From the NCBI GenBank assembly GCA_951804945.1, contig OX638154.1:52514001-52578000 (forward strand): a DNA stretch of 64,000 nt, in the 5' to 3' direction. The notes below the pieces were generated by a model. It ran no database searches. It saw only the letters and a list, made by a program, of their open reading frames with translations, and was not told the origin of the DNA. Numbering within the stretch: the stretch's first letter is position 1; every line of letters starts with the position of its first letter. The DNA is from Podarcis cretensis. Its lineage: Eukaryota. A program made the position numbers and the translations under genes. Positions 17,482 to 50,782 of the stretch are shown here, in pieces.

Positions 17482-18167
17482 GCAGAAACCAACATGTATT
17501 CTTATTAATTTACATTTTGAAGGTTCCTGCTGAAAATACTAAATGCATCTGACTTCCTATCCTTTAGCATGCACCTATCATACTTAGCCTCGTTGGTGAC
17601 ATTTTTCAGTGGTATGCTTCCCTGAGTAATGTTGCTGGGACTGCCATAATATGGCCATTTGGAATAGTGCAGCTGCTCCTGCTGTTAACAAGGAAGATGT
17701 AAAGTGCCTAGAGAGTTCGCCCCTCAGCCACAGCATCTCACTGATTTCAGAGGCTTGGAATGTTGCATCATTTTTATTTTGGAATATTGTATGTGTAAAA
17801 GGGGAAAGCTTATTGCTTGGCTCATTTTATTCCCATCATCCCAAAGTTTAATCGCATTCAGGGTGGCAGTGGGAAGGGTGATGATAGGCTAAGAGGTCTG
17901 ACTCTGAGGTGACTTAAAGTGTGTGGTTCATAGCAGCCCAGGAGATGTGCAAAAACAGTGGAAAATGTGCTGACCTCAGCTCAATTGCAACAGCACACTA
18001 AAAATTCTGCTTGGTTTCAGGCTTGTGGAACGCACAGTCACTATTGTGGATTTCAGCAGTTTCCAGAAAGAATGTGCTAGTCCAAAGACAACGTATTGGG
18101 ATGACTTTAATGGTGAGTGTCGTTTATTGGAGGGATCCTATGCAGCATGCTTAGAATTGGAGTCTTT

Positions 18168-19976
18168 TTTTTTTATAAAATTTTTATTAGGTTTTCACAT
18201 TTTATAAAACAAAAACAAAAACAAAAACAAAACATATATATTTTTAAACTCTTATTTTCATTACCCCCTTTCCCTGACTTCCCCCCACCCCCTCTTCATA
18301 CATCCCAATTCCAAAAATTAGTTCAGCAAGTTCTTATCTCCCATCTTTAACATATTATTGTTTTTTTTAAACTTAATCCTTTTTACTTATCCAAATTTAA
18401 TTTATCCAATTCTCTTTTAAACATTAAATCTTTTTTTTTCTAAGGTCGACCTAATTACCCTTCCACGAATTTCTCCCTTTGTATTTTTGTTAATTATATG
18501 TCATAATGGCCAGATACAAAAATCATAAAATTTTGAAATTCTGTTCTCCCCTCCCTCCCTACCCCAGTTTCCATCCCTTCCCAAGCAATTATCCTAGCCC
18601 GGATTCCTCACATCAGAGGCCTTCAAGTCTCTCTCTGCCGATTTTGTTGGTAGCCCTTTTTGTTGGTCCTCAGGTCTCGAAGGAATTCTATCTCAGTCAC
18701 ATCATATTTTCTTCCATCCAAGATACTTAATAGCAGTTGCTGCAAAAAGTCAGTTGATCTCCCATACTCAAGGAGGAAGTCCCAATCATATTTCTTTACT
18801 CTTTTGAATTCCAATATTCCAAGTGCTCCCGGGACTTCCTCCTTCATCTTTCTCATCTTTCGCAGATTTGTAATCCAAAGCTCTTCTTCTTTATTTCCTG
18901 ACAATATGGGCTTCTGATTGATATTTTCCTGCACTTTTTCCATTCCTCCTTTTCTCTCCACCGGTTCCAAAAAAGTTTTTTCTGGTTCAGCTGCAGATTC
19001 CTTATCAGGCAAATCCTTTATGCATTCAGCAGAGTCGTTTGTTTTGGAATTCAAGGTCCTATGTTCTTTGTTCATAGCCGTACTCTGCTCTTGCAGGATT
19101 CCCACGAGAAAAAACATTCTTTCTATCTCTACCAGTAATTTTCCCTCTGCAGCCATTGTAATGTCTCTAGTTCCCCCTAGGGGGATTACAGTTGCTTGAT
19201 AGTCCTTTTCCAACAGCCCGTTACTTTGTTGTTTATGACTACGTTGTTTCCAGCCACCTCAGTTCAAAAGCAACACTTTTAGTTCAGAAAGTTATTAAAT
19301 AACAAAGTTCTTAAATTTTAGCCGCCCGTTTGACAGCTCCTTTGACAGCTGTCAAACTCCTTGTTCTTTTTCCTCCGGCTCACACACAGGACGCTCCCGG
19401 GTTCGGGAGGGGGGGGTTTACACAAAAGCTTCCAAAACTCCTCACTTTCTCTCCAGCACAAAGACTTCTTCTGTCAAACTCATGGAAATATTTTTTATCT
19501 AACACCAAAAACAGTACTCTCTACCTTAGTCCACCGATCCTTGCTTTAGATCGTTTGTAGATAGGGGGGTGCGGACTTCCCTTTAGCACATCCCCCGGTT
19601 GTACCGAATTCAAAGATATAGATTTTAAAGTCCAAATTCCATTCTACTCACGGGTTATTTGTTTCCAGTCCGAATTTTGGGAAAAAAGTCAGCGCTGTCC
19701 GGCCATGGCACGCGGCTTCGCTCCACTGAAGTAGCGGTCTACTCTCAGCACCACGCCGCTCCCCGTACCCTCTCCGTAGCCTTTAAAAAGGCTCTTCGTG
19801 GGTCAGGGAGGGCGCTTAAAGGTGCCCACCGAGTCACCAAGTCTGCAGGCTTCCGCGCCTGCGGTTTCTGAGGGTCCCCGCGTCGCCGGCGCGGTAGGAC
19901 CCGTCTTCAGCAGAGCCGATTCCCTCCGGAGCTCGGAGGGAATCCGCCATTAGCCGATCGCGCTAACCCGGAAGTC
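18168..19976 (-). mobile_element. Complete 1.8-kb non-autonomous L1-clade-like retroelement (HAL1-like or internally deleted L1)
   Basis: 16-bp TSD tagaattggagtcttt at 18152-18167 and 19977-19992. Minus-strand 5' end GACTTCCGG...AATGGCGG, CpG-rich 5' UTR, single ORF, G-rich 3' UTR, AATAAA (18183-18188) and poly(A). Confidence 0.9.
18623..19156 (-). CDS. 177-aa K/E-rich ORF of the retroelement (possibly ORF1p-related, function unknown)
   Basis: Open frame from ATG at 19156 (acaATGG, strong Kozak) to the stop at 18623; the track extends it 19 codons from an upstream TTG; no RT or endonuclease motifs visible. Confidence 0.5.
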   Translation of the reverse strand: MAAEGKLLVEIERMFFLVGILQEQSTAMNKEHRTLNSKTNDSAECIKDLPDKESAAEPEKTFLEPVERKGGMEKVQENINQKPILSGNKEEELWITNLRKMRKMKEEVPGALGILEFKRVKKYDWDFLLEYGRSTDFLQQLLLSILDGRKYDVTEIEFLRDLRTNKKGYQQNRQRET

Positions 19977-21196
19977 TAGAATTGGAGTCTTTGCAAGGAG
20001 TGAGTAAGGTGGGTTGTCTCAATAGATCAGGTAAGTATGAAGAGGGGAGTAGGCAGGAAAGTTGGTAGTTCTAAATTAAATTAATTAGGTAAAGGGCTGC
20101 AGGACCAGGAAATGGAGCATGAGCAGATGGGCAGAATATGATGTAGTATCTGTGAGTTGCACATGTGAGGTGCTTTGATGAACAGACAAATTCAGCTAGC
20201 AGGAAGGAAAAGCAATTCAGTATAGGAACAGGAAAGGACAGAAAAGAACCAATCACAGTAGGAGCAAAGCAAAGATACAGTAAAACTACTTGGCTCTGTG
20301 AAGGCCTATAATTTGCCAAAGACATGCAGTAGCTCATGGTTCTCTGAAGTCCACCAGTGGCTGATTAACCGGAAAAAAATGAGACACAAACTTATAATTG
20401 TTGCACTTTTCTGTTCAGGGGACTAACTGCATTTGACTTTAGAATTTGTAAGTTTTGTTAAAATGCAGGCACTTTGAAAAGGTCTAATACAACTTTATTG
20501 TTGAAATAAGAATATAAATTGTAATTGTGAACATTTCACATTTTTTAAAGAAATACATTTTCACTAAGTCAAAAAAGTATTCAGATTAATAAACGATTTG
20601 AGAAAATATCTATAAGATTATGCAGGTAACTAAAAACTATAGCAACAGCAAACAGTTATCAATAGTTGAGAAGTAATTGCCTTGTTTCGCTATTTAATTA
20701 ATGGCTGATTGAATTCAAATATTAAGGGCAACAAAATTGCTGGGTAAAGCAATCTAAAATCAGAAAGTCAACAAAAATATAATTAGATAAAGCAGCACTT
20801 AAAACAATCATTTTAAAACAGATAGAAAACTACCCCTCCCCTCAAAAATCAGCAATAAGGAATTCCAGAAAAATAAAAAGAAATTTTTTTTACAGCAAGC
20901 CATTCTAATTCAAACACATAATCCAGTGACACAATGACATACCTATGTTATACAATTATATTGCAAAACCCAATGACATCCCATTTAAAAAAAGATTTAC
21001 TGGGTTAAGTCACATACATAAAATTAAAGTCATCTGTACAGTGAAAATGGAAGTTATGGGGTTTTTTCTCAGATGGATTTGCAATAAAGATAGGTGCCCA
21101 TCATGAAGTTACAGGACTTGGACACTGAGGACCTGAGTTAGGGAGGTTTGTTGGTCACCAGTTCTCCCTAGTGTTATACAGTGTTATACTGTGGAG

Positions 21197-24373: not shown

Positions 24374-25134
24374 CAGAGGTTTTCAACCTTTTTGATTCCA
24401 TGGCTTCCTTAGCCAACTACATTCTTTCTGCAGCATCCCTGTGGGACTCTGGAGCTCACTTATATAACCCCTTGCCTGCAGAGCTGGCAGCCCCTCACCC
24501 CTTTTTGAACACTCCCTTATGGTGTAAGGGATATGATAGCCATGTTCAAATATATAAAAGGATGTCACATAGAGGAGGGAGAAAGGTTGTTTTCTGCTGC
24601 TCCAGAGAAGCGGACACGGAGCAATGGATCCAAACTACAAGAAAGAAGATTCCACCTAAACATTAGGAAGAACTTCCTGACAGTAAGAGCTGTTCGACAG
24701 TGGAATTTGCTGTCAAGGAGTGTGGTGGAGTCTCCTTCTTTGGAGGTCTTTAAGCAGAGGCTTGACAACCATATGTCAGGAGTGCTCTGATGGTGTTTCC
24801 TGCTTGGCAGGGGGTTGGACTTGATGACCCTTGTGGTCTCTTCCAACTCTATGATTCTATGATTCTATGGTGCTCCATCAGTCTCCTCTACTCTCAGCCC
24901 AGGTCGCTGAGCTGCCCAGCCCAAAGAGAGGTGCCTCCCAGAGGCACCATTTGCCTGTGGAGCTTGTAGCCAGGGCTGCTTCAATAAACAGCTGTGCAAG
25001 CCTTTGGGAGGCAGAGACGTGAGAGGGCATCAGTAGGGAAAGAAAGAGGGACAAAGGCCAGCGTTGCTCACAGCACCCCTGACCATCATTCAAGGCACTC
25101 CAGTGTGCCACGGCACACTGGTTGAAAACCACTG
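24374..25134. mobile_element. hAT-Charlie-like non-autonomous transposon carrying a nested CR1
   Basis: Perfect 8-bp TSD cactagag at 24366-24373 and 25135-25142; TIRs cagaggttttcaacc / ggttgaaaaccactg (14/15 match). Confidence 0.92.
24525..24865 (+). mobile_element. Young CR1 LINE 3' end (5'-truncated)
   Basis: Intact ORF2 C-terminus MIAMFKYIKG...RFHLNIRKNFLTVRAVRQWNLL...SLEVFKQRLD; (ATTCTATG)n tail; 7-bp TSD tatggtg at 24518-24524 and 24866-24872. Confidence 0.96.
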
Positions 25135-26285: not shown

Positions 26286-26384
26286 GCCTGTGTGTGTGTG
26301 TGAGAGAGAGTGTGTGTTGTGTTTGAGAGCGAGAGCGAGCGTGAGTGTGTGTGTGTGAGTGAGAGAGAGAGAGAGCGAGCGAGC
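26286..26384 (+). repeat. Compound (GT)n/(GA)n/(GAGC)n microsatellite in the proximal promoter
   Basis: Directly visible alternating tgtgtg, gagaga and gagcgagc tracts. Confidence 0.92.
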
Positions 26385-26399
26385 AGCTAGGAGTCCCTG

Positions 26400-26635
26400 G
26401 GAGAGTGGAGGCTCATTCACTGATTAGAGGCAGCTTCGAGAGGCAGCGCTGCGCTCTCCTTGGCTCCCAGCAGCCGTGTCAGGCTCCTGCTCACTCCCAT
26501 GCTGGCCGAAGGCGCTTGCACACACGCGCCGGGCTTAGCACGTCCGGCTCTCCTCCCCGCGCAGTAACAGACCAGGCTCTCGCTCTCCGCAGCCTGACAT
26601 TAAAGGGGGACGCCACCTCTCGAGGAATTTCCACG
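26400..26635 (+). other. RNF220: Probable RNF220 non-coding exon 1 (5' boundary approximate)
   Basis: GC/CpG-rich segment right after a GT/GA microsatellite; Inr-like CTCATTC at 26412-26418; strong donor ACG|GTGAGT at 26635/26636, giving a 6775-nt intron 1. Confidence 0.7.
26499..26567 (+). promoter_or_regulatory. Candidate uORF in exon 1 (22 aa, MLAEGACTHAPGLARPALLPAQ)
   Basis: ATG 26499 to TAA 26565-26567 in weak Kozak context; depends on the exon 1 call. Confidence 0.45.
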
Positions 26636-29600
26636 GTGAGTAGCGGGAGATCCCAGGGGTGCATGCGAAGAAGCCAGGGGTGCATGGTGCATTGTTTGTG
26701 CGCGCGCGTGTTTGTGCCTAAACGTATGTGTCGACCTAACTTTCCAGCAGGGGATCTCCGGGGTTTCGATTCAGTTCTCTGCCCTCGTACTTTCCCCCCT
26801 TTCTTCTTCTTCTTCTTTTTTACTTCTCTTGCAAATGCGGGCGCCGATGTTTCGAAAAGTCAAACTTTCTGAACCAAGTTTGCCTCTCCATTTTTTTCTC
26901 CACGCCCAGCTCCTCGACGCAAAATTCCCACGGAAGAAGATGCTCATCGGGGTCCAGAGGTGGGGATGCTGAAAAAGCGCGCACGCGGGGGGGGGGGGTT
27001 GGAATCTTAATGAGTTTTTTTTAAAAAAACAACAACAAAAATCTGATCAATATGGTGCCCCCTCCCCTTTTAAGGGTAGCTGTGTTCCCGGGACTCTCCT
27101 CCTCCTCCTGCTGTTTATTTTACTGGGGAGGGGGGTGGGAAGCAGGCGACACGGGGAGGGGGCTGGGTGGGATCAGGTGCCGGGGGAAGAAGCCTGCAAA
27201 ACGCAGCCGAAAACCGCGCGGCTCCAATTAGCGCAAACAACATTTAGTTTTAAAAAGGAGAAAGAGAAGAGCGGGGGGGGGGGGGGGAGAGAAGCGATCC
27301 CTGTGTAAGCCCGGGAGATACTTCCCGGCTTTCCTTCGCGTGTCCCACGGTCTTTGGCTGAAATAACGCAGTTTCCCCAAACAATACCCAAGACTCGGGG
27401 TGGGGGGTGGGGTGAAGAGGACCTTCGTCGAAAGGGACAAGCCTGCTAGTCTCCCTCTGACACGACCTAGGTAGATATTATTTTTTGCACAAAACTCAAA
27501 ATGTTTAAAAATCCAGCATTTGCTCTGTGCGTAGAAAGCACCGCATAGAGTCAGGATCGTCTTCGCCCTATCAGCTTTCAGTTTTACTACGGAGCGGGCG
27601 CACATGTGAACTTTGAGTATTAGAAATTACATAACCGCAATTAAGGCGTACTTTCCGCCTTTTTTTCCCCTCCTCCTTTTGTCCCAAGTTCCTTTTCCCT
27701 GCCGCGATGGTTGCGCACGTGAAATGCTTGCAGTTTGGAGGAAAGGTTGAAGTTCGGACAAACAACTCTCCTTCCTTCAAAGAAAGTCCCTCTCCGCCTG
27801 CATTTTTATCTCCGAGATGCAAACCAATTTTTTAAAAATTGGTCTTTAGTCGTATGTTTGCAATTATTCTCCTGCAATGAATAGCATAGCAAAAGCGATG
27901 TTGTGTTGTAGGGTCAACACCGGTGCAAGTGAGCAAATAGAGAACCCGGCTGGGAACCCGGTTGGCGAGAGGAAGTGGAAGGAAATTGGAATATGCATAG
28001 TTTAGCTGGGCTTCCTTAGCAAAACTTTCTTCACATTTTCAGCCCGAAGCCGAGGAACGGCCAGCTTTTGAAATGAAACAACAGCAGCCGCTGCTTGCAG
28101 CGGGGTAGGGAAGTCAGTACAGAGGTTGCAAGGAAGGGGAAATAATTCCTCACCTTGTAGATCGAAATACATAAAAAACATCTGCTTGGGCACAATGAAA
28201 TCATTAGGCAATGTCCAGTTCAGGAGTTGCATTGAATGCTTTCGCCTTCCAGGCAGGAAACGTGCAGGGAAGGAATTGTTGCAATAAATTCAAACAGCAC
28301 GAGGCATCCGCACATTTGATGAGCTTTGTTTAGTATTTTAAAAAGAAAACGAGCCTTGAACAGACTGCAGAGATTGGGGTGAAGGGAGATAGATCTCTGC
28401 TCCCACTCCACCCTCCCCGCACATATTTCCTGGAAGGAATGAAAAATTTGATTCCTTTGCAAAGTTGCGAAACCGATTTTGCACAGTTATTATTCTTATT
28501 ATTATTTTTTCTTTTGTCGATGCAGAGCATTTGGCGGGGGTGTTCAGTGAAAAAAGTGACCAGGCGTGGCCGAGCGGGCGTATTAGCGGGGAATTAGTTT
28601 CCGATTCCTGTATCTCTCCAATGCACTTTCTGAAATCTCTACCCACTTTTTTCTTTTTTTATCCCCGATGTGGAGAGGACAGTGTGTATATAAAACATGG
28701 TTTGAAGTTGTAGTAAGCCGACCGAATTCTTTTTGTGCTCAGTTTAGACACCGGGAAAAGGACAAACACCTGTTTTGATTTGCAACTGCAGAAAGTGGGA
28801 GAAGGGCGGGTTAAAGCTCCTCCTATGAAATTAAAAGCGTGCTTGTTTTCTGCTTTTGCTGGAAATTGGAGATTTCTGGAACAGAACTTTAAGATCCAAA
28901 TCGATCAAGTATTATTTCTCTACCAGAAAACGTAAGAGTTTGAATAGTTTAATTTTACACTCCACCCCCCCCCCGCCGCCGCTTAACTGTGGAAGCGTTG
29001 TGCGTCCATCTCGTGCCCCTTTTTGGGTCGGGGCTGGAGGATGAGATGAAGGCCCCACAATTTGCAGATCAGAACCTCCTTACTTTGTGTTGTTTACCGA
29101 TGATTAACAAACGCCTTTTGGCGGCTTCGACTTCTGCAAGTTATTACTTTGCTTAACAAAAGAAGGATGCATTTTGCAGGGGTAGGGTGGAAATCTGTTA
29201 TCTGTTTTAGTACCTTGGCCCGTCCCCGTACTTGAATTTTATTTTCCTTGTTATTTTGTTGTTGTTGCAAAGCCGGGGGGGGGGGTCGCAAAGCGAATTG
29301 GGGAGAGGCGAGGCGGCCCCTTTGTTGTTGCGCCAAGGGGCCCGATTCACCATTGGTTTCATATAAATGTGAATAGATCTTCGTACTTTCCGAACTGGCA
29401 TTTTGGTCGCCGAAAAGGCAGTGCCCTTATTCCGCCTCGCCCCCTATCCCGGCCACCGTCTCATAATCTAGTTTGGACACCCACAGTTCCAAAACCATCC
29501 TGATGTTTAGTGACAAGGAATACAGACCTATAGATTTTCTTAATTCAACACTGGGATCTCCTGCTTGTTCTTGTCCTCAATCTTGCATTTGTTTTCATTT

Positions 29601-30663
29601 ATTAGGAGGAAATCCAGTTTAGTTTGAATAAATAATCCAGTTGCACACTAAATCCCCCCAACAGCTGGGATAGTTTTGTTTTATATTATCAAGATTTTCT
29701 CAGTAGGAATAAATCTCCAAATTCCTGCTTCTAAAATTATGTGATTACAAAGTAACAAGAGCTCAACCTGTAGTTTCCAACTCTCTGTTCTTTCCTAACA
29801 GCTTGAACTCTTAAAGAAAAAGTTATTTCTTTCTCTCCGCAAACTGCAGGATTTTTTTTTTATTCCGTTTTTTTATTTATTGGAATTGGGAAATAGCAGG
29901 AGGATCACAAAAATGCAACCTGTTTTAGTAGTGCGGGATGTGTGGTTTATATGTTTTAATTAAGAATGGCAAAGTAATTTGTTACACAGAAACTCTGCCT
30001 TGCTTTTCTGGGTTCTGTATATTAATATAAAATTTATATTAATTAGCAAATGAGTTTTCCACCTGCAGCTTGTGACCAACTCTGTTTATCCACTTGCATG
30101 ATGGCTAGAAGGATGCATGGTGAATTCTGCATTATCTTAGCCTCTCTTCATTTTAGTAGTTCTCCTCTGGGGTAATTAAAAATAACATTATAATAATTAA
30201 TAAACAGAGCAACCAAAACCTAAGCTGTGCATAACATGTTAGATTTTGTTCTAAGTTGTGGGTTTGTTTTTGTTATGAATAAAGGCTGAAGCTTTTAATT
30301 GGGATTCTCTTGGTCTTGCCGCTTCACTTTGCATTTAAGTAATCGGTGCAAATGACGGGTGTTCTTGCAAGGAATCATGCTTATCCATAAAGCCAAGTGG
30401 TGATTTTAAAAATATAAGTAAACAATTTTTAAAAATTATTAATATTATTATTATTTGTGTGCTGATCTAACTCGGATACCCAGTGGACAGTTTATGTAGC
30501 TTCATAGATTTATCTCCACCCCCATGGCCTCCTCCACTCCTTGTTTAGTTAATTTAACAAAGACTTTTTGCAATCTGTTTGGAGTTTGTCTGATGCCATG
30601 GAAAAGTATCTGCTGATTTATTTGGTTGCTTTTCGATTTCTGTCGCTAGACCGTCTTTTCTCT

Positions 30664-30803
30664 NNNNNNNNNNNNNNNNNNNNNNNNNNNNNNNNNNNNN
30701 NNNNNNNNNNNNNNNNNNNNNNNNNNNNNNNNNNNNNNNNNNNNNNNNNNNNNNNNNNNNNNNNNNNNNNNNNNNNNNNNNNNNNNNNNNNNNNNNNNNN
30801 NNN
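30664..30803. other. Assembly gap (140 N)
   Basis: Run of N. Confidence 1.
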
Positions 30804-30829
30804 ATTAAAAAAATCAGCATAGAGGCAGA

Positions 30830-31345
30830 AAAGTAACAGTTACTTACTTTGGCTGTGCCCGCTCCCTTCCAGTCACCCAAATGTTTCATCAGGCTGGTTA
30901 TCCTGCAATCCATATTTTTTTAATTAAGCAGGTCAGTTAGTTTTCTTATTTTGGGTTCCATATTTAAAAACCAATGACATTTTGACATTGGGAGTGTATT
31001 ATCTATAGATTTTCATAATGACTGGCCTTGCCGCAGCCTCATCTGTACATGCTCCTAATGATGGCGGTGATAGGGGATAATCGTGTGGGGCAAAGAGATG
31101 GTGGAAAAGAAGGTAAGAGACAAGGAGAAAATGGGGGAGAAAAGGATGCAGGAGGTTTTTTTAAAAAAAAAATAAACTTGGCTTGGTGCAATATCATAAT
31201 ATGTTGATTTATTCTCTATGTAATGAAGTTTGCGAACGAATAGGGCGATTGGAGTGATTCACAGTATTCTACAAGGAGTGTCAAGTGTGGCTTCCAGATT
31301 ACTAATTTATGAAATACATTTAACGTAATGAGGTGACAGTGGAAG
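30830..31345. promoter_or_regulatory. Candidate conserved non-coding element / enhancer in intron 1
   Basis: Non-repetitive and dense in TAAT/TAATTA, TTTATGA, TGACA/TGACAG motifs with retained CpGs; conservation not verified. Confidence 0.5.
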
Positions 31346-33423
31346 TAAAAATAGAAAAGCAGGCACAGAGGCATTAGTAGTGTGCTCTCACCCCCCTCAT
31401 TTATTTAAATCCTAGAAAGGCTATGGTTTTCCCTCAGTCCCATGGGTCAATTCAGATATTAATAGTGTATTTATGTATTTATCTGGGTAGGGTGTTCCCC
31501 TCCCTTTAAAAATAATTGAAAATGAGCATTCAGGTCTCCTATCCCCTGCTTCACCTTCACCTATTATTGCAGTTTTTTGTTTTAAATTTGTTTGCTTGCT
31601 TTTCTGTGACAAATCAGCTATGCAGAAAACAGTGCAGAAGGTAACTCCGAAAGAAGGCCGTCCAGATTCTCCATGGCATCTTTCTGTCCATGGCTAGTAC
31701 TTGACAGAAAGTTATTTAAAATTTGGAAGCAACCAAAACTTTGTTAATGTGAGATCTATAATCTGGTGATTTAGCACTGATGTGTATCAGGAAGGGAGCC
31801 AAATGAGGAAGAGGCAAGATGATGCCCTCTCATCTTCACACTTAATAACAGTCACTGAGCGTCTGGATACAGAATGGGAGAAAAGGAAATGTTACTGCTG
31901 GACAGCATGAAAGGCGCAGTCAGGATTCCACAGAGTTTGTTAACCTAGCCTTGCTCATTCACAGAATACAAAAGCCACTCCATTAGAAAAGAGACTCTTT
32001 CAGTAAGTTTTATTTGCTATGTCTGACCTTCTGGATCTAACAGGCACATTTTGTAACAGCTTTTTTATTATATGATTTTTTTGTGGCCTTTTGAGTGCCG
32101 CAAGGCTAGCACATTGTTTTAAAGTAACAGTTCTCTTACATTCAAGGGCATTGTGGCATTCTGAATGGTTGGCAGTGGAAGCTTAAAAAGTGGAGGGGGG
32201 TTGATTCTAGGTTGAAGAGGAGAGAACGTGATTTTGATTTCAACTCTAAAAAGGGTTAGAGGGAAAGTTAATTTTATTATTTATACATACATGTAAATGT
32301 AAATATCTGTACTGATACTTTGCGAGTGGGGATAATAGGTTACTTAGAATTTGTAAGTAATTTAAAGGAAAAGCAAGCCTAGACGTTTTGTTAACATTTT
32401 TCTCTAAATGCTAATGGCATATCCAGGACAGTTTACAAATCTACTTAAGCATGAGCGCATTAGGAAGTAAAATTACTGATCCGTTTTGTGCTGTCCTCAA
32501 CCTAAAAGGCAGATGCTTGCAAGAGATCATATGGCACTGGCTCCCATTATGATTTTAAATATTGTCAGAGACGCCAAGCACTTTATTGATGAAGTTGCTG
32601 CTGCTTTCGTAAAAGCACACAAACACCACATGGAACAATTCAGAGAAATGTATAAGAGAGGCATGTTTATGCCCACATGCACCATTGAATATAAAGTGAA
32701 ATCTATAACTTGTATGTATATCTGCACAGGTAAATATTCACATGGGCCTCTACAACAGAAAACAGATACGGTTTCTACATTATTTTTTCTTAATGGGCTG
32801 TGCAGATATATGCAGAAATGCTTGTTTGTAAATTGTGAATAACTTACCACATTTTTAAAATAGTAATTACTTTCTTTAAACATAATAACCTAAAATTGCC
32901 ACCACTGATTTCCACAGTCCAATATTTCCCCCCATATTTTTGTCTGTAAGGAGTCAGGTCATTTGCCTTTCATTTGCTCATTAAAGATTGTTTTCATCCC
33001 ATATAGCCCTTATTCAGAGCATTCGGTCCCCACAAACCACTCATTCTGAACATGCACTAGTTTCTTGCCCTTCTTACAGCAGAAGGTGAGGTCAGAGCAA
33101 GTTGCACTACCTGCATGAACCACAGAGTAGTGTTGGTGTGTGGAAAAGTGCCCCGTTTTATTTACTTTTAGTGGGGATCTTCTCTTGACTTCAAAGTTTG
33201 GTGCTAAAGCTGGTAGCAGGAGAAAGACTTGTGCTGACACACCCTTAGTTAGAGACCCTTCTAGTTATTTGTGAACTTTTCTGAAAGAGAACACATGGAG
33301 GTTTGGTTCTTTGCTCATACAATTTTCTTGTTGCATTCATGATAGGTAACTGTCCAGGACTGAATGGCAATTAACTATTTCCTCCCCTTTCCCCTTCTTT
33401 TTCTCCACAGCTTTGGAACAGTG

Positions 33424-33438
33424 ATGAAGCCTCAGTGA
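33424..33438 (+). promoter_or_regulatory. Short uORF MKPQ* in the exon 2 5' UTR
   Basis: ATG AAG CCT CAG TGA, ending 89 nt upstream of the main ATG; G at -3. Confidence 0.6.
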
Positions 33439-33527
33439 GACCCCCCAGCTCTACACCCAGACGTTGCTTTGTTTTCCATCCAGGGAAGACCGTTTTCCTT
33501 GCGGCCCTGTCAAGGAAAGAGACTCCG

Positions 33528-34152
33528 ATGGACTTACACCGGGCAGCCTTCAAGATGGAAAACTCCTCCTACCTTCCCAATCCTCTGGCATCTCCAGCCC
33601 TGATGGTTCTCGCTTCTACCGCTGAAGCAAGCCGCGATGCTTCCATCCCTTGCCAGCAGCCAAGGCCCTTTGGTGTTCCAGTATCGGTGGACAAGGATGT
33701 GCACATCCCATTCACTAATGGCTCCTATACTTTTGCCTCCATGTACCACCGACAAGGTGGTGTGCCAGGAGCATTCACCAACCGTGATTTTCCACCTTCC
33801 TTGCTGCATCTGCACCCCCAGTTTGCTCCCCCCAATCTGGACTGCACCCCAATCAGCATGCTGAACCACAGTGGCGTTGGGGCCTTCCGTCCCTTTGCCT
33901 CCACTGAGGACAGGGAGAGTTACCAGTCAGCTTTTACACCTGCCAAGCGTCTGAAGAACTGCCATGACACTGACTCTCCCCACCTTCGCTTCTCAGACGC
34001 TGATGGCAAGGAGTATGAGTTTGGAGCCCAGCTCCCATCTGGCTCCCCCGGCTCCCTCAAAGTCGATGACACGGGGAAAAAGATATTCGCTGTCTCTGGC
34101 CTCATTTCGGACCGGGAAACCTCATCCAGTCCCGAGGACCGAAATGATAGAT
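33528..34152 (+). CDS. RNF220: E3 ubiquitin ligase RNF220, first coding exon (N-terminal 208 codons, phase-1 donor); later exons lie outside the window
   Basis: Translation MDLHRAAFKMENSSYLPNPLASPALMVLASTAEASRDASIPCQQPRPFG...SSSPEDRNDR is nearly identical to the vertebrate RNF220 N-terminus as recalled. ATG at 33528; donor AT|GTAAGT at 34152/34153. Confidence 0.97.
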
Positions 34153-34529
34153 GTAAGTACCTCAACTTTGCTTAGCTGGGGCAGAAAAATGTTCAACAGC
34201 TATGTTTTGCAATGCTAGGAGGTGTCATAATACTTGTGCTCCTGTTTTTTTCTTTAAACTTATGATAATGGGTTACAGAGGGAGGGGGATTGAAGGGAAT
34301 CTACGCAAGGAAGCTGTTATTCTCATACTAGATTGGGATGCTGAGTCACAGAAAAATGACCAACATTCCAGAAATGGGAGGGAATCTCTATGTTGTGAAT
34401 TCATTGAAGGTTGTGTCCCTGTAGTTACGGAGGAACATTTGTTCCAGACCACTTGCCTATTCCATGATTGTTGCCCTACTGTCTTGTTGAACTCCCTTCC
34501 CTTCCTCCCGCCCCAACCCTTTCCCTCAC

Positions 34530-44193: not shown

Positions 44194-44294
44194 TCATTGC
44201 CTGTTAGAGAAGATAAACATTTATGAATGATAAATATGATTTCTGTTTTTTATTGCTTCATTCATAAATGTTTATCTTCTCTAACAGGCAATGA
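44194..44294. repeat. Perfect 37-bp inverted repeat with a 27-nt spacer
   Basis: 44194-44230 tcattgcctgttagagaagataaacatttatgaatga is the exact reverse complement of 44258-44294. Confidence 0.97.
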
Positions 44295-49740: not shown

Positions 49741-50782
49741 AAGCCTAGGTCTCTACACCCTCTACCAGGAGTTTCCCGTGGTAGAATTCTCATCAGAATC
49801 AGTGCATTTTGTCTTGTCACTTGGGCATCAATAACTAATTTTAAAATTTGCATTTGTCATTGATGCCCAAGTGACCAGACAAGAATTCTTGGTGTGGCTC
49901 TTGATGGAAGAAGCAATGTGGCAGCAATATATGCTTTCTTGCAAATAAAATCCCATTGTATGTGGTGCTAGTGAGCAGTGGTTCTATATCTTTAGAACTG
50001 AACATTGGAGTGCCTACAAAAGTTTCACATAGAATTAGTTCTGGGTATTTTTTCCTGCAAAAATTTTAACGTTTATCTGATCCTTTTCAGTTTTGCTTTC
50101 TTTATATGTGGCTCTCAGTATTGTATAAACTTAGTCACGTCTTAACCTCTTTTCCCCATCTGCGCGTGTGAACTAGACTCACCTTGCTCCACAACATAAG
50201 CTGTGGTGTGGGAAATAGCCATTATTGGTGACAGCTGCTTGAGAAAGTCTGAGAACAGTGGGGAAGCATGCCATTGGGCCATGGTTCTGAAGGCAGCCAT
50301 GCTCTAGATTACATTTCAGGAGCCACTCCTAGGCATTTTCAGTAGCACTGCCCATTCCTGCCAGCTGCTCCCCCCCCTTCCTCTGAGCATGGTCAGTCAA
50401 GCATGCTAATTTTCCAGCAGAAGTGTTGTCATAATTAGGCAGCTTGTCTGAGGGTTTAGTGGTACTTAACCAGATGTGAAAAGGCTGGTCCCCTGGTCCT
50501 GGCTTGCTCACAGGAGCTTTTGCCAGATGCCTTGTCACTGATGTTCACGCTGCCCATAATAGGCTGCCAAGCTCCCTTTCCCACTGCTTGCCTCTCCTTT
50601 TATGCTAAGCATGCATCTGAAAACTTTGTCTACAACCCTCTTATTTGGTTGCCTTCTTAATAAATTTGAAACAACTAGAAAACGGGGCCTGTGTGAGGAG
50701 GTTGAAAATCCCTTATACAAAGCAGGAGACAAATTTAGGTAGGAAGAATGATAGAAGCACGCTTTTACTAATAGAGAACTAC

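Follow-up and report, generated by a model that had tools for sequence, protein, structure and literature searches.

A candidate 742-nt circular RNA from the start-codon exon of RNF220 in the lizard Podarcis cretensis

In human, exon 2 of RNF220 is back-spliced onto itself into a single-exon circular RNA, and the lizard counterpart of this exon lies in a 64,000-nt stretch of the Podarcis cretensis genome (contig OX638154.1, positions 52,514,001 to 52,578,000, forward strand; hereafter the window, to which unprefixed coordinates refer). This raises the question of whether the lizard exon is circularized as well and whether such a circle would give rise to a protein. We consider it likely, with a joint probability of about 0.62, that exon 2 is back-spliced into a 742-nt circle like its human ortholog and that this circle is left untranslated. 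Judged for itself, from gene structure and orthology, formation of the 742-nt circle in the lizard appears quite probable.

Exon 2 of RNF220 and its circularized orthologs

RNF220 is a single-copy gene in the P. cretensis genome, and its features described below lie on the forward strand. As stated in an earlier, sequence-only reading of this DNA, exon 2 (33411-34152) measures 742 nt, the size also reported for human (PMC8549339). It is composed of 117 nt of 5' UTR and 625 nt of coding sequence (33528-34152, residues 1-208, main ATG at 33528), is preceded by a strong pyrimidine tract and AG (33388-33410, pyrimidine fraction 0.95, CAG before the exon) and is followed by the donor GTAAGT (34153-34158). 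Its location as a start-codon exon between long introns could likewise be observed directly, with an intron 1 of 6,775 nt (26636-33410) downstream of a proximal exon 1 that lies within a CpG island (26300-26635, 5' end approximate, donor GTGAGT) and an intron 2 that spans 199,927 nt as far as exon 3 and about 118.6 kb as far as a 25-codon cassette exon. The contig carries the remaining RNF220 protein in nine additional matches located 200-326 kb downstream, and it is to these later exons, not to exon 2, that the Pfam RNF220 and RING domains belong. The 208 codons opened by the ATG at 33528 match RNF220 of many squamates at 100% identity and that of mammals at 97%. Among 158 proteins with the start motif, out of 165 with 7 skipped and many of them isoforms, the coding part of the exon comprises 208 residues in 157, so that human and lizard exon 2 share the 117-nt UTR part. 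The exon at 33411-34152 is the lizard ortholog of the human circRNF220 exon.

Within intron 2 we additionally noted a likely alternative first exon matching the Lacerta agilis model P0144 (G000:C6:52614612-52614701), the cassette exon (G000:C6:52666784-52666861) and two hairpin-type inverted repeats (44194-44294, 37 nt at 100%; 49809-49882, 31 nt at 90%), which are possibly small DNA-transposon remnants. An RNase_T-family exon (G000:C6:52476359-52476478) resides on the opposite strand, 38 kb upstream of the window, and presumably belongs to ERI3, a neighbour of RNF220.

The human circle (hsa_circ_0012152, hg19 chr1:44877652-44878394, exon 2, 742 bp) has a Sanger-sequenced junction, is RNase R resistant with a half-life of over 48 h and is mainly cytoplasmic (PMC8549339); as a validated circle it appeared already in papers of 2015 and 2019. 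The lizard exon agrees with it in gene, exon number, length, 625-nt coding part and long downstream intron, whereas the human circle is validated and the lizard circle predicted. Stagsted et al. 2019 label human circRNF220 an AUG circRNA with 519 junction reads (PMC6487579 Table S2), where at least six human RNF220 rows are found, including three other exon 2 circles with 13, 7 and 4 reads. AUG circles are described there as conserved, with long flanking introns (cut-off over 6,500 nt) and without need for inverted Alus, and among the top 1,000 circles human-mouse conservation amounts to 39% for AUG and 31% for long-intron circles (PMC6487579). The lizard exon shares with this class the annotated start codon, an acceptor in the 5' UTR, flanking introns above 6,500 nt (6,775 nt upstream, 118.6-199.9 kb downstream), the lack of a nearby inverted repeat pair in transcripts from the proximal promoter, an ORF ending soon after the junction and an orthologous exon that circularizes in other species, namely human and chicken, the chicken gene name being our assignment. 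The class study covered human, mouse and fly (PMC6487579), whereas the lizard exon is from a squamate; neither a squamate member of the AUG class nor a lizard circRNA study was found in our literature searches. The human circle, the AUG class and a coding prediction for human are already known, and the lizard exon stands beside them as an unremarkable ortholog. What is new is the link of a chicken circle to RNF220 and a putative 669-nt variant with an endless ORF that would result from an internal acceptor.

The chicken circle 8:19472297|19473025 of gene ENSGALG00000010109 belongs to the UTR5+CDS class, has a length of 729 nt (PMC5824844 Table S3) and is non-zero in all six RNase R muscle libraries, while the other five circles of the gene start 114 kb or more downstream. 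The same source lists this gene identifier under positive regulation of canonical Wnt signalling and names RNF220 in its parental-gene network (PMC5824844). From this Wnt row, the mention of RNF220 in Table S10 and the 114-kb distance to the next circle we infer that ENSGALG00000010109 is RNF220. Searched by name, the identifier gave no match in the main texts of the papers covered. We take the 729 nt to be an inclusive count, as in the CIRI convention. The chicken start-codon circle is very likely derived from the same RNF220 exon. Like the predicted lizard circle, it is a single UTR5+CDS circle, with the next circle of the gene 114 kb away, but its length is a multiple of three and one frame is therefore kept. 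Circles in human and chicken lie on both sides of the lizards in the tree, which constitutes the best support for a conserved circle and suggests that circRNF220 reaches sauropsids without a fixed length (729 versus 742 nt). The earlier proposal that exon 2 gives an AUG circRNA which is shared by amniotes and does not depend on inverted repeats is well supported with regard to orthology (validated in human, inferred in chicken), while in the lizard itself the circle has the status of a prediction.

Flanking introns and the route to a circle

Comparison of intron 1 with the whole of intron 2 (DUST on, two N stretches of 140 and 156 nt left out) revealed no long antisense match: the 15 matches with E values up to 1 are all weak, and the best antisense one measures 29 nt (E 0.027). 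Circularization in transcripts from the proximal promoter would therefore not rest on repeat pairing. A different situation is encountered if a distal exon is used as the first exon, where a 15.3-kb distal intron shows 31 matches to intron 2, 18 of them antisense and 13 sense. The best antisense match is a 332-nt repeat with 98% identity (24530-24861), its inverted copy lying 140.5-140.9 kb past the exon 2 donor; the repeat is part of the pre-mRNA only upon distal exon usage. The initial statement that no inverted transposable-element pair flanks the exon is thus correct for intron 1 against the whole of intron 2, but does not extend to transcripts starting at the distal exon. About 40 nt past the donor of this exon we also observed a 1.8-kb minus-strand insertion (18152-19992), bounded by a 16-nt target-site duplication without mismatches (18152-18167, 19977-19992). 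It has a poly-A tail, a 5' end rich in CpG and an ORF of 177 aa without Pfam match, and resembles a young LINE with an internal deletion. For a route via RNA-binding proteins, no QKI motif was detected within 1 kb on either side of exon 2 and a single RBFOX motif upstream with none downstream, so this route is unsupported.

We consider a kinetic route via the long introns the most plausible one for circularization. The next acceptor would become available only after the polymerase has transcribed a further 119-200 kb, and during this time the strong exon 2 donor could attack the strong upstream acceptor of its own exon, without any pairing of introns. Each back-splicing event would remove the start-codon exon from one full-length transcript.

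Two readings compete with this picture. Exon 2 could be nothing more than a long first coding exon of the usual kind, held at this size by coding constraint and UTR conservation, with back-splicing in the lizard absent or at the level of noise. The protein by itself fixes 625 of the 742 nt, and among the top 1,000 the majority of human circles have no conserved counterpart in mouse (PMC6487579); against this, lizards are bracketed by the human circle and, by assignment, the chicken circle, and the intron layout is kept. We regard the ordinary-exon reading as unlikely, although it carries more weight than any other alternative considered here. Far less probable is that the circle arises by pairing of inverted repeats in transcripts starting at the distal exon. 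While the majority of distal intron matches is antisense and the 332-nt pair is nearly identical, all repeats precede the exon 1 that lies in the CpG island, the best of them has its partner at a distance of 141 kb, the mixture of antisense and sense matches is what is expected of scattered repeats, and the distal exon is supported by models from one genus. Back-splicing via the long-intron route hence remains our preferred reading of how a lizard circle would arise.

Acceptor choice and reading frames of the circle

The length and frame of the circle depend on the acceptor that is used. An internal alternative acceptor (33461-33483, pyrimidine fraction 0.75, exon start 33484) is used in 14 NCBI squamate gene models, four from corn snake and six and four from two anoles, which join the end of exon 1 (...H-G) to K-T/N-I...P-M. 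In P. cretensis the acceptor at 33484 is present and exon 1 reads ...RNFH-G in the frame of the snake and anole models, but no lacertid gene model uses it; its use in snake and anole may reflect a genomic difference in those species. As a separate observation, exon 1 contains a 22-codon uORF (26499-26567), the orthologous ATG of which runs in frame into RNF220 in the corn snake and anole models. In the lacertid Lacerta agilis, three models (P0025, P0140, P0141) read MTLM into LWNSDE, and P. cretensis shows a matching candidate 3' end of a distal exon at 18101-18112, with ATG, four codons and the donor GTGAGT, which supports the acceptor at 33411 in lacertids. The exon 2 UTR (33411-33527) is open in the RNF220 frame, so that splicing of the distal exon to 33411 adds 43 residues, as in these three models. 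We also considered this UTR as a conserved N-terminal extension and discarded this reading for want of proof: only 20 of the 158 models are extended at all, a frame becomes visible as protein only when it is open, and a run of 39 open codons is expected by chance in about 23% of cases. Use of a different acceptor had been named beforehand as an outcome that would speak against the 742-nt circle; this applies in part, namely to the snake and anole models, while 33411 is backed by those of Lacerta agilis.

The short exon form (33484-34152) comprises 669 nt or 223 codons with phase 1-1, and circularized it would be free of stops in the RNF220 frame, being a multiple of three in length with zero stop codons and R-W-K as the residues across the putative junction. 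The fifteen open codons required have a chance probability of about 57%.

For the 742-nt form, translation of the circularized exon confirmed the earlier reading across a back-splice from 34152 to 33411. The ORF from the native ATG is intact over the putative junction and encodes 212 aa, 208 native residues followed by SLEQ and a TGA at 33422-33424. With 742 leaving a remainder of 1 on division by three and the stop after SLEQ, an endless ORF is not formed. The stop overlaps with the start of a four-codon uORF (MKPQ) in the motif TGATG (33422-33426), as also proposed. Since UTR composition yields a stop within five codons past the junction with a chance of about 17%, this early stop is not special. 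Models of Lacerta agilis, bearded dragon and tinamou contain 39 residues through the exon 2 UTR without gaps, suggesting a length of 742 nt there too. Read from the proteins, however, the bearded dragon and tinamou models start with L-L-D/E-G versus L-W-N-S in P. cretensis, which would imply a different post-junction peptide in these two species, and a weak duck model has G-T-V-Y where the lizard +1 frame has G-T-V-M, so that the TGATG overlap looks absent in duck. Thus, the SLEQ tail appears not to be conserved and looks incidental. In silico digestion with trypsin would leave only SLEQ of the junction tail, whereas LysC would release a 27-residue C-terminal peptide ending in these four residues. 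A further ATG at 33964, in the +1 frame of the 742-nt circle, opens a 314-aa ORF, which enters the RNF220 frame on passing the putative junction and extends over more than one round.

Translation and function

A coding role is already in print for human, where the RNF220 exon 2 circle is listed as a prediction with canonical Met and novel C-terminus (PMC10135897 Table 2), the same idea as in the sequence-only reading. The circles of that paper are in silico predictions, no RNF220 peptide evidence was encountered there, and its supplement text gave no match to RNF220. Likewise, the supplement texts of PMC8549339, PMC8516420 and PMC10135897 showed no match to the terms searched, while their figures and listed tables could hold more. 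Literature searches returned no evidence for circRNF220 translation and no RNF220 ribosome footprints or peptide across the junction, and no IRES is reported for human circRNF220. For AUG circles as a class, PMC6487579 describes post-junction ORFs of chance length without ORF conservation and an absence of ribosome phasing over the junction, and reports the class as untranslated. As human circRNF220 is cytoplasmic and m6A-modified (PMC11335200; PMC10657300), low-level translation could still occur.

The proposal that a 212-aa RING-less fragment acts as a dominant negative is not supported. Besides the untranslated state of the class, a tail that the models of bearded dragon, tinamou and duck do not seem to share and a chicken circle of 729 nt, published mapping speaks against binding of N-terminal fragments to two partners: TDP43 was bound by full-length, ligase-dead and delta-MD2 RNF220 only (PMC8373269), and Smurf1/2 showed no binding to a fragment of the first 240 residues (PMC10400574). 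These results weaken the dominant-negative idea, with other partners still conceivable; the available portion of PMC8982406 contains no RNF220 domain map. A fold prediction for full-length RNF220 from 20 near-identical sequences reached a mean pLDDT of 30.6 and left even the RING unresolved, and is uninformative on disorder of the fragment. In mouse, the isoform with exon 2 is found mainly in neural tissue, and other tissues contain predominantly an isoform with an N-terminal deletion (PMC12296455).

Three ways in which the circle could nevertheless act were weighed against these data. Cap-independent translation of the 742-nt circle into the 212-aa (23 kDa) fragment, competing with full-length RNF220, would profit from the intact ORF, from an N-terminus that is 97% identical between reptiles and mammals and contributes to TDP43 binding (PMC8373269), and from m6A in human, for which the lizard circle offers a marginally high number of DRACH motifs (17, against a mean of 11.9 in shuffled sequences, of which 62 in 1000 reached this number). 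With the class untranslated, the binding data above, the seemingly variable tail and a human ORF predicted in silico, we judge this improbable. Lower still is the chance that back-splicing also occurs at 33484 and that rolling-circle translation of the 669-nt circle produces a repeated unit of 223 aa from the RNF220 N-terminus. In favor of it are the stop-free 223 codons, the agreement of the models of three squamate species with the P. cretensis exon 1 frame, and the chicken length, likewise a multiple of three; yet its acceptor is weaker (0.75 versus 0.95 pyrimidine) and its use taken from gene models, none of them lacertid, and about 8% of AUG circles carry endless ORFs without sign of selection (PMC6487579). 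Moreover, no exon-internal start and no 669-nt form are present among the human RNF220 rows listed in PMC6487579 Table S2, a difference from the form predicted for the lizard. Equally slim is the prospect of the wider scheme in which squamate exon 2 would yield two circles, a terminating one of 742 nt and an endless one of 669 nt, the short one (perhaps together with the 729-nt circle of chicken) being rolling-circle translated into a multivalent, RING-less N-terminal decoy in brain. Least probable of all is a conserved miR-30 sponge, proposed for human leukaemia on the basis of pull-down and rescue in AML cells (PMC8549339). Unlike the human circle, the lizard circle is devoid of a miR-30 seed site, no 6- to 8-mer match to the seed being found.

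We therefore favor an untranslated 742-nt circle, in which the 212-aa ORF would be a by-product of exon phase, given that a circle has no cap. If the circle has an effect, it is most likely exerted at the RNA level or as a modest drain on full-length mRNA.

As a caveat for RNF220 genetics, exon 2 is the part missing from the knockout mouse in wide use (PMC12296455), so that the circle would be lost too, if mice make it. The series of 742, 729 and 669 nt, with three lengths and different post-junction readings, provides a natural test of selection on the circle ORF. Should the lizard circle prove true, circRNF220 would represent amniote-wide back-splicing that is kept by gene architecture and not by repeats.
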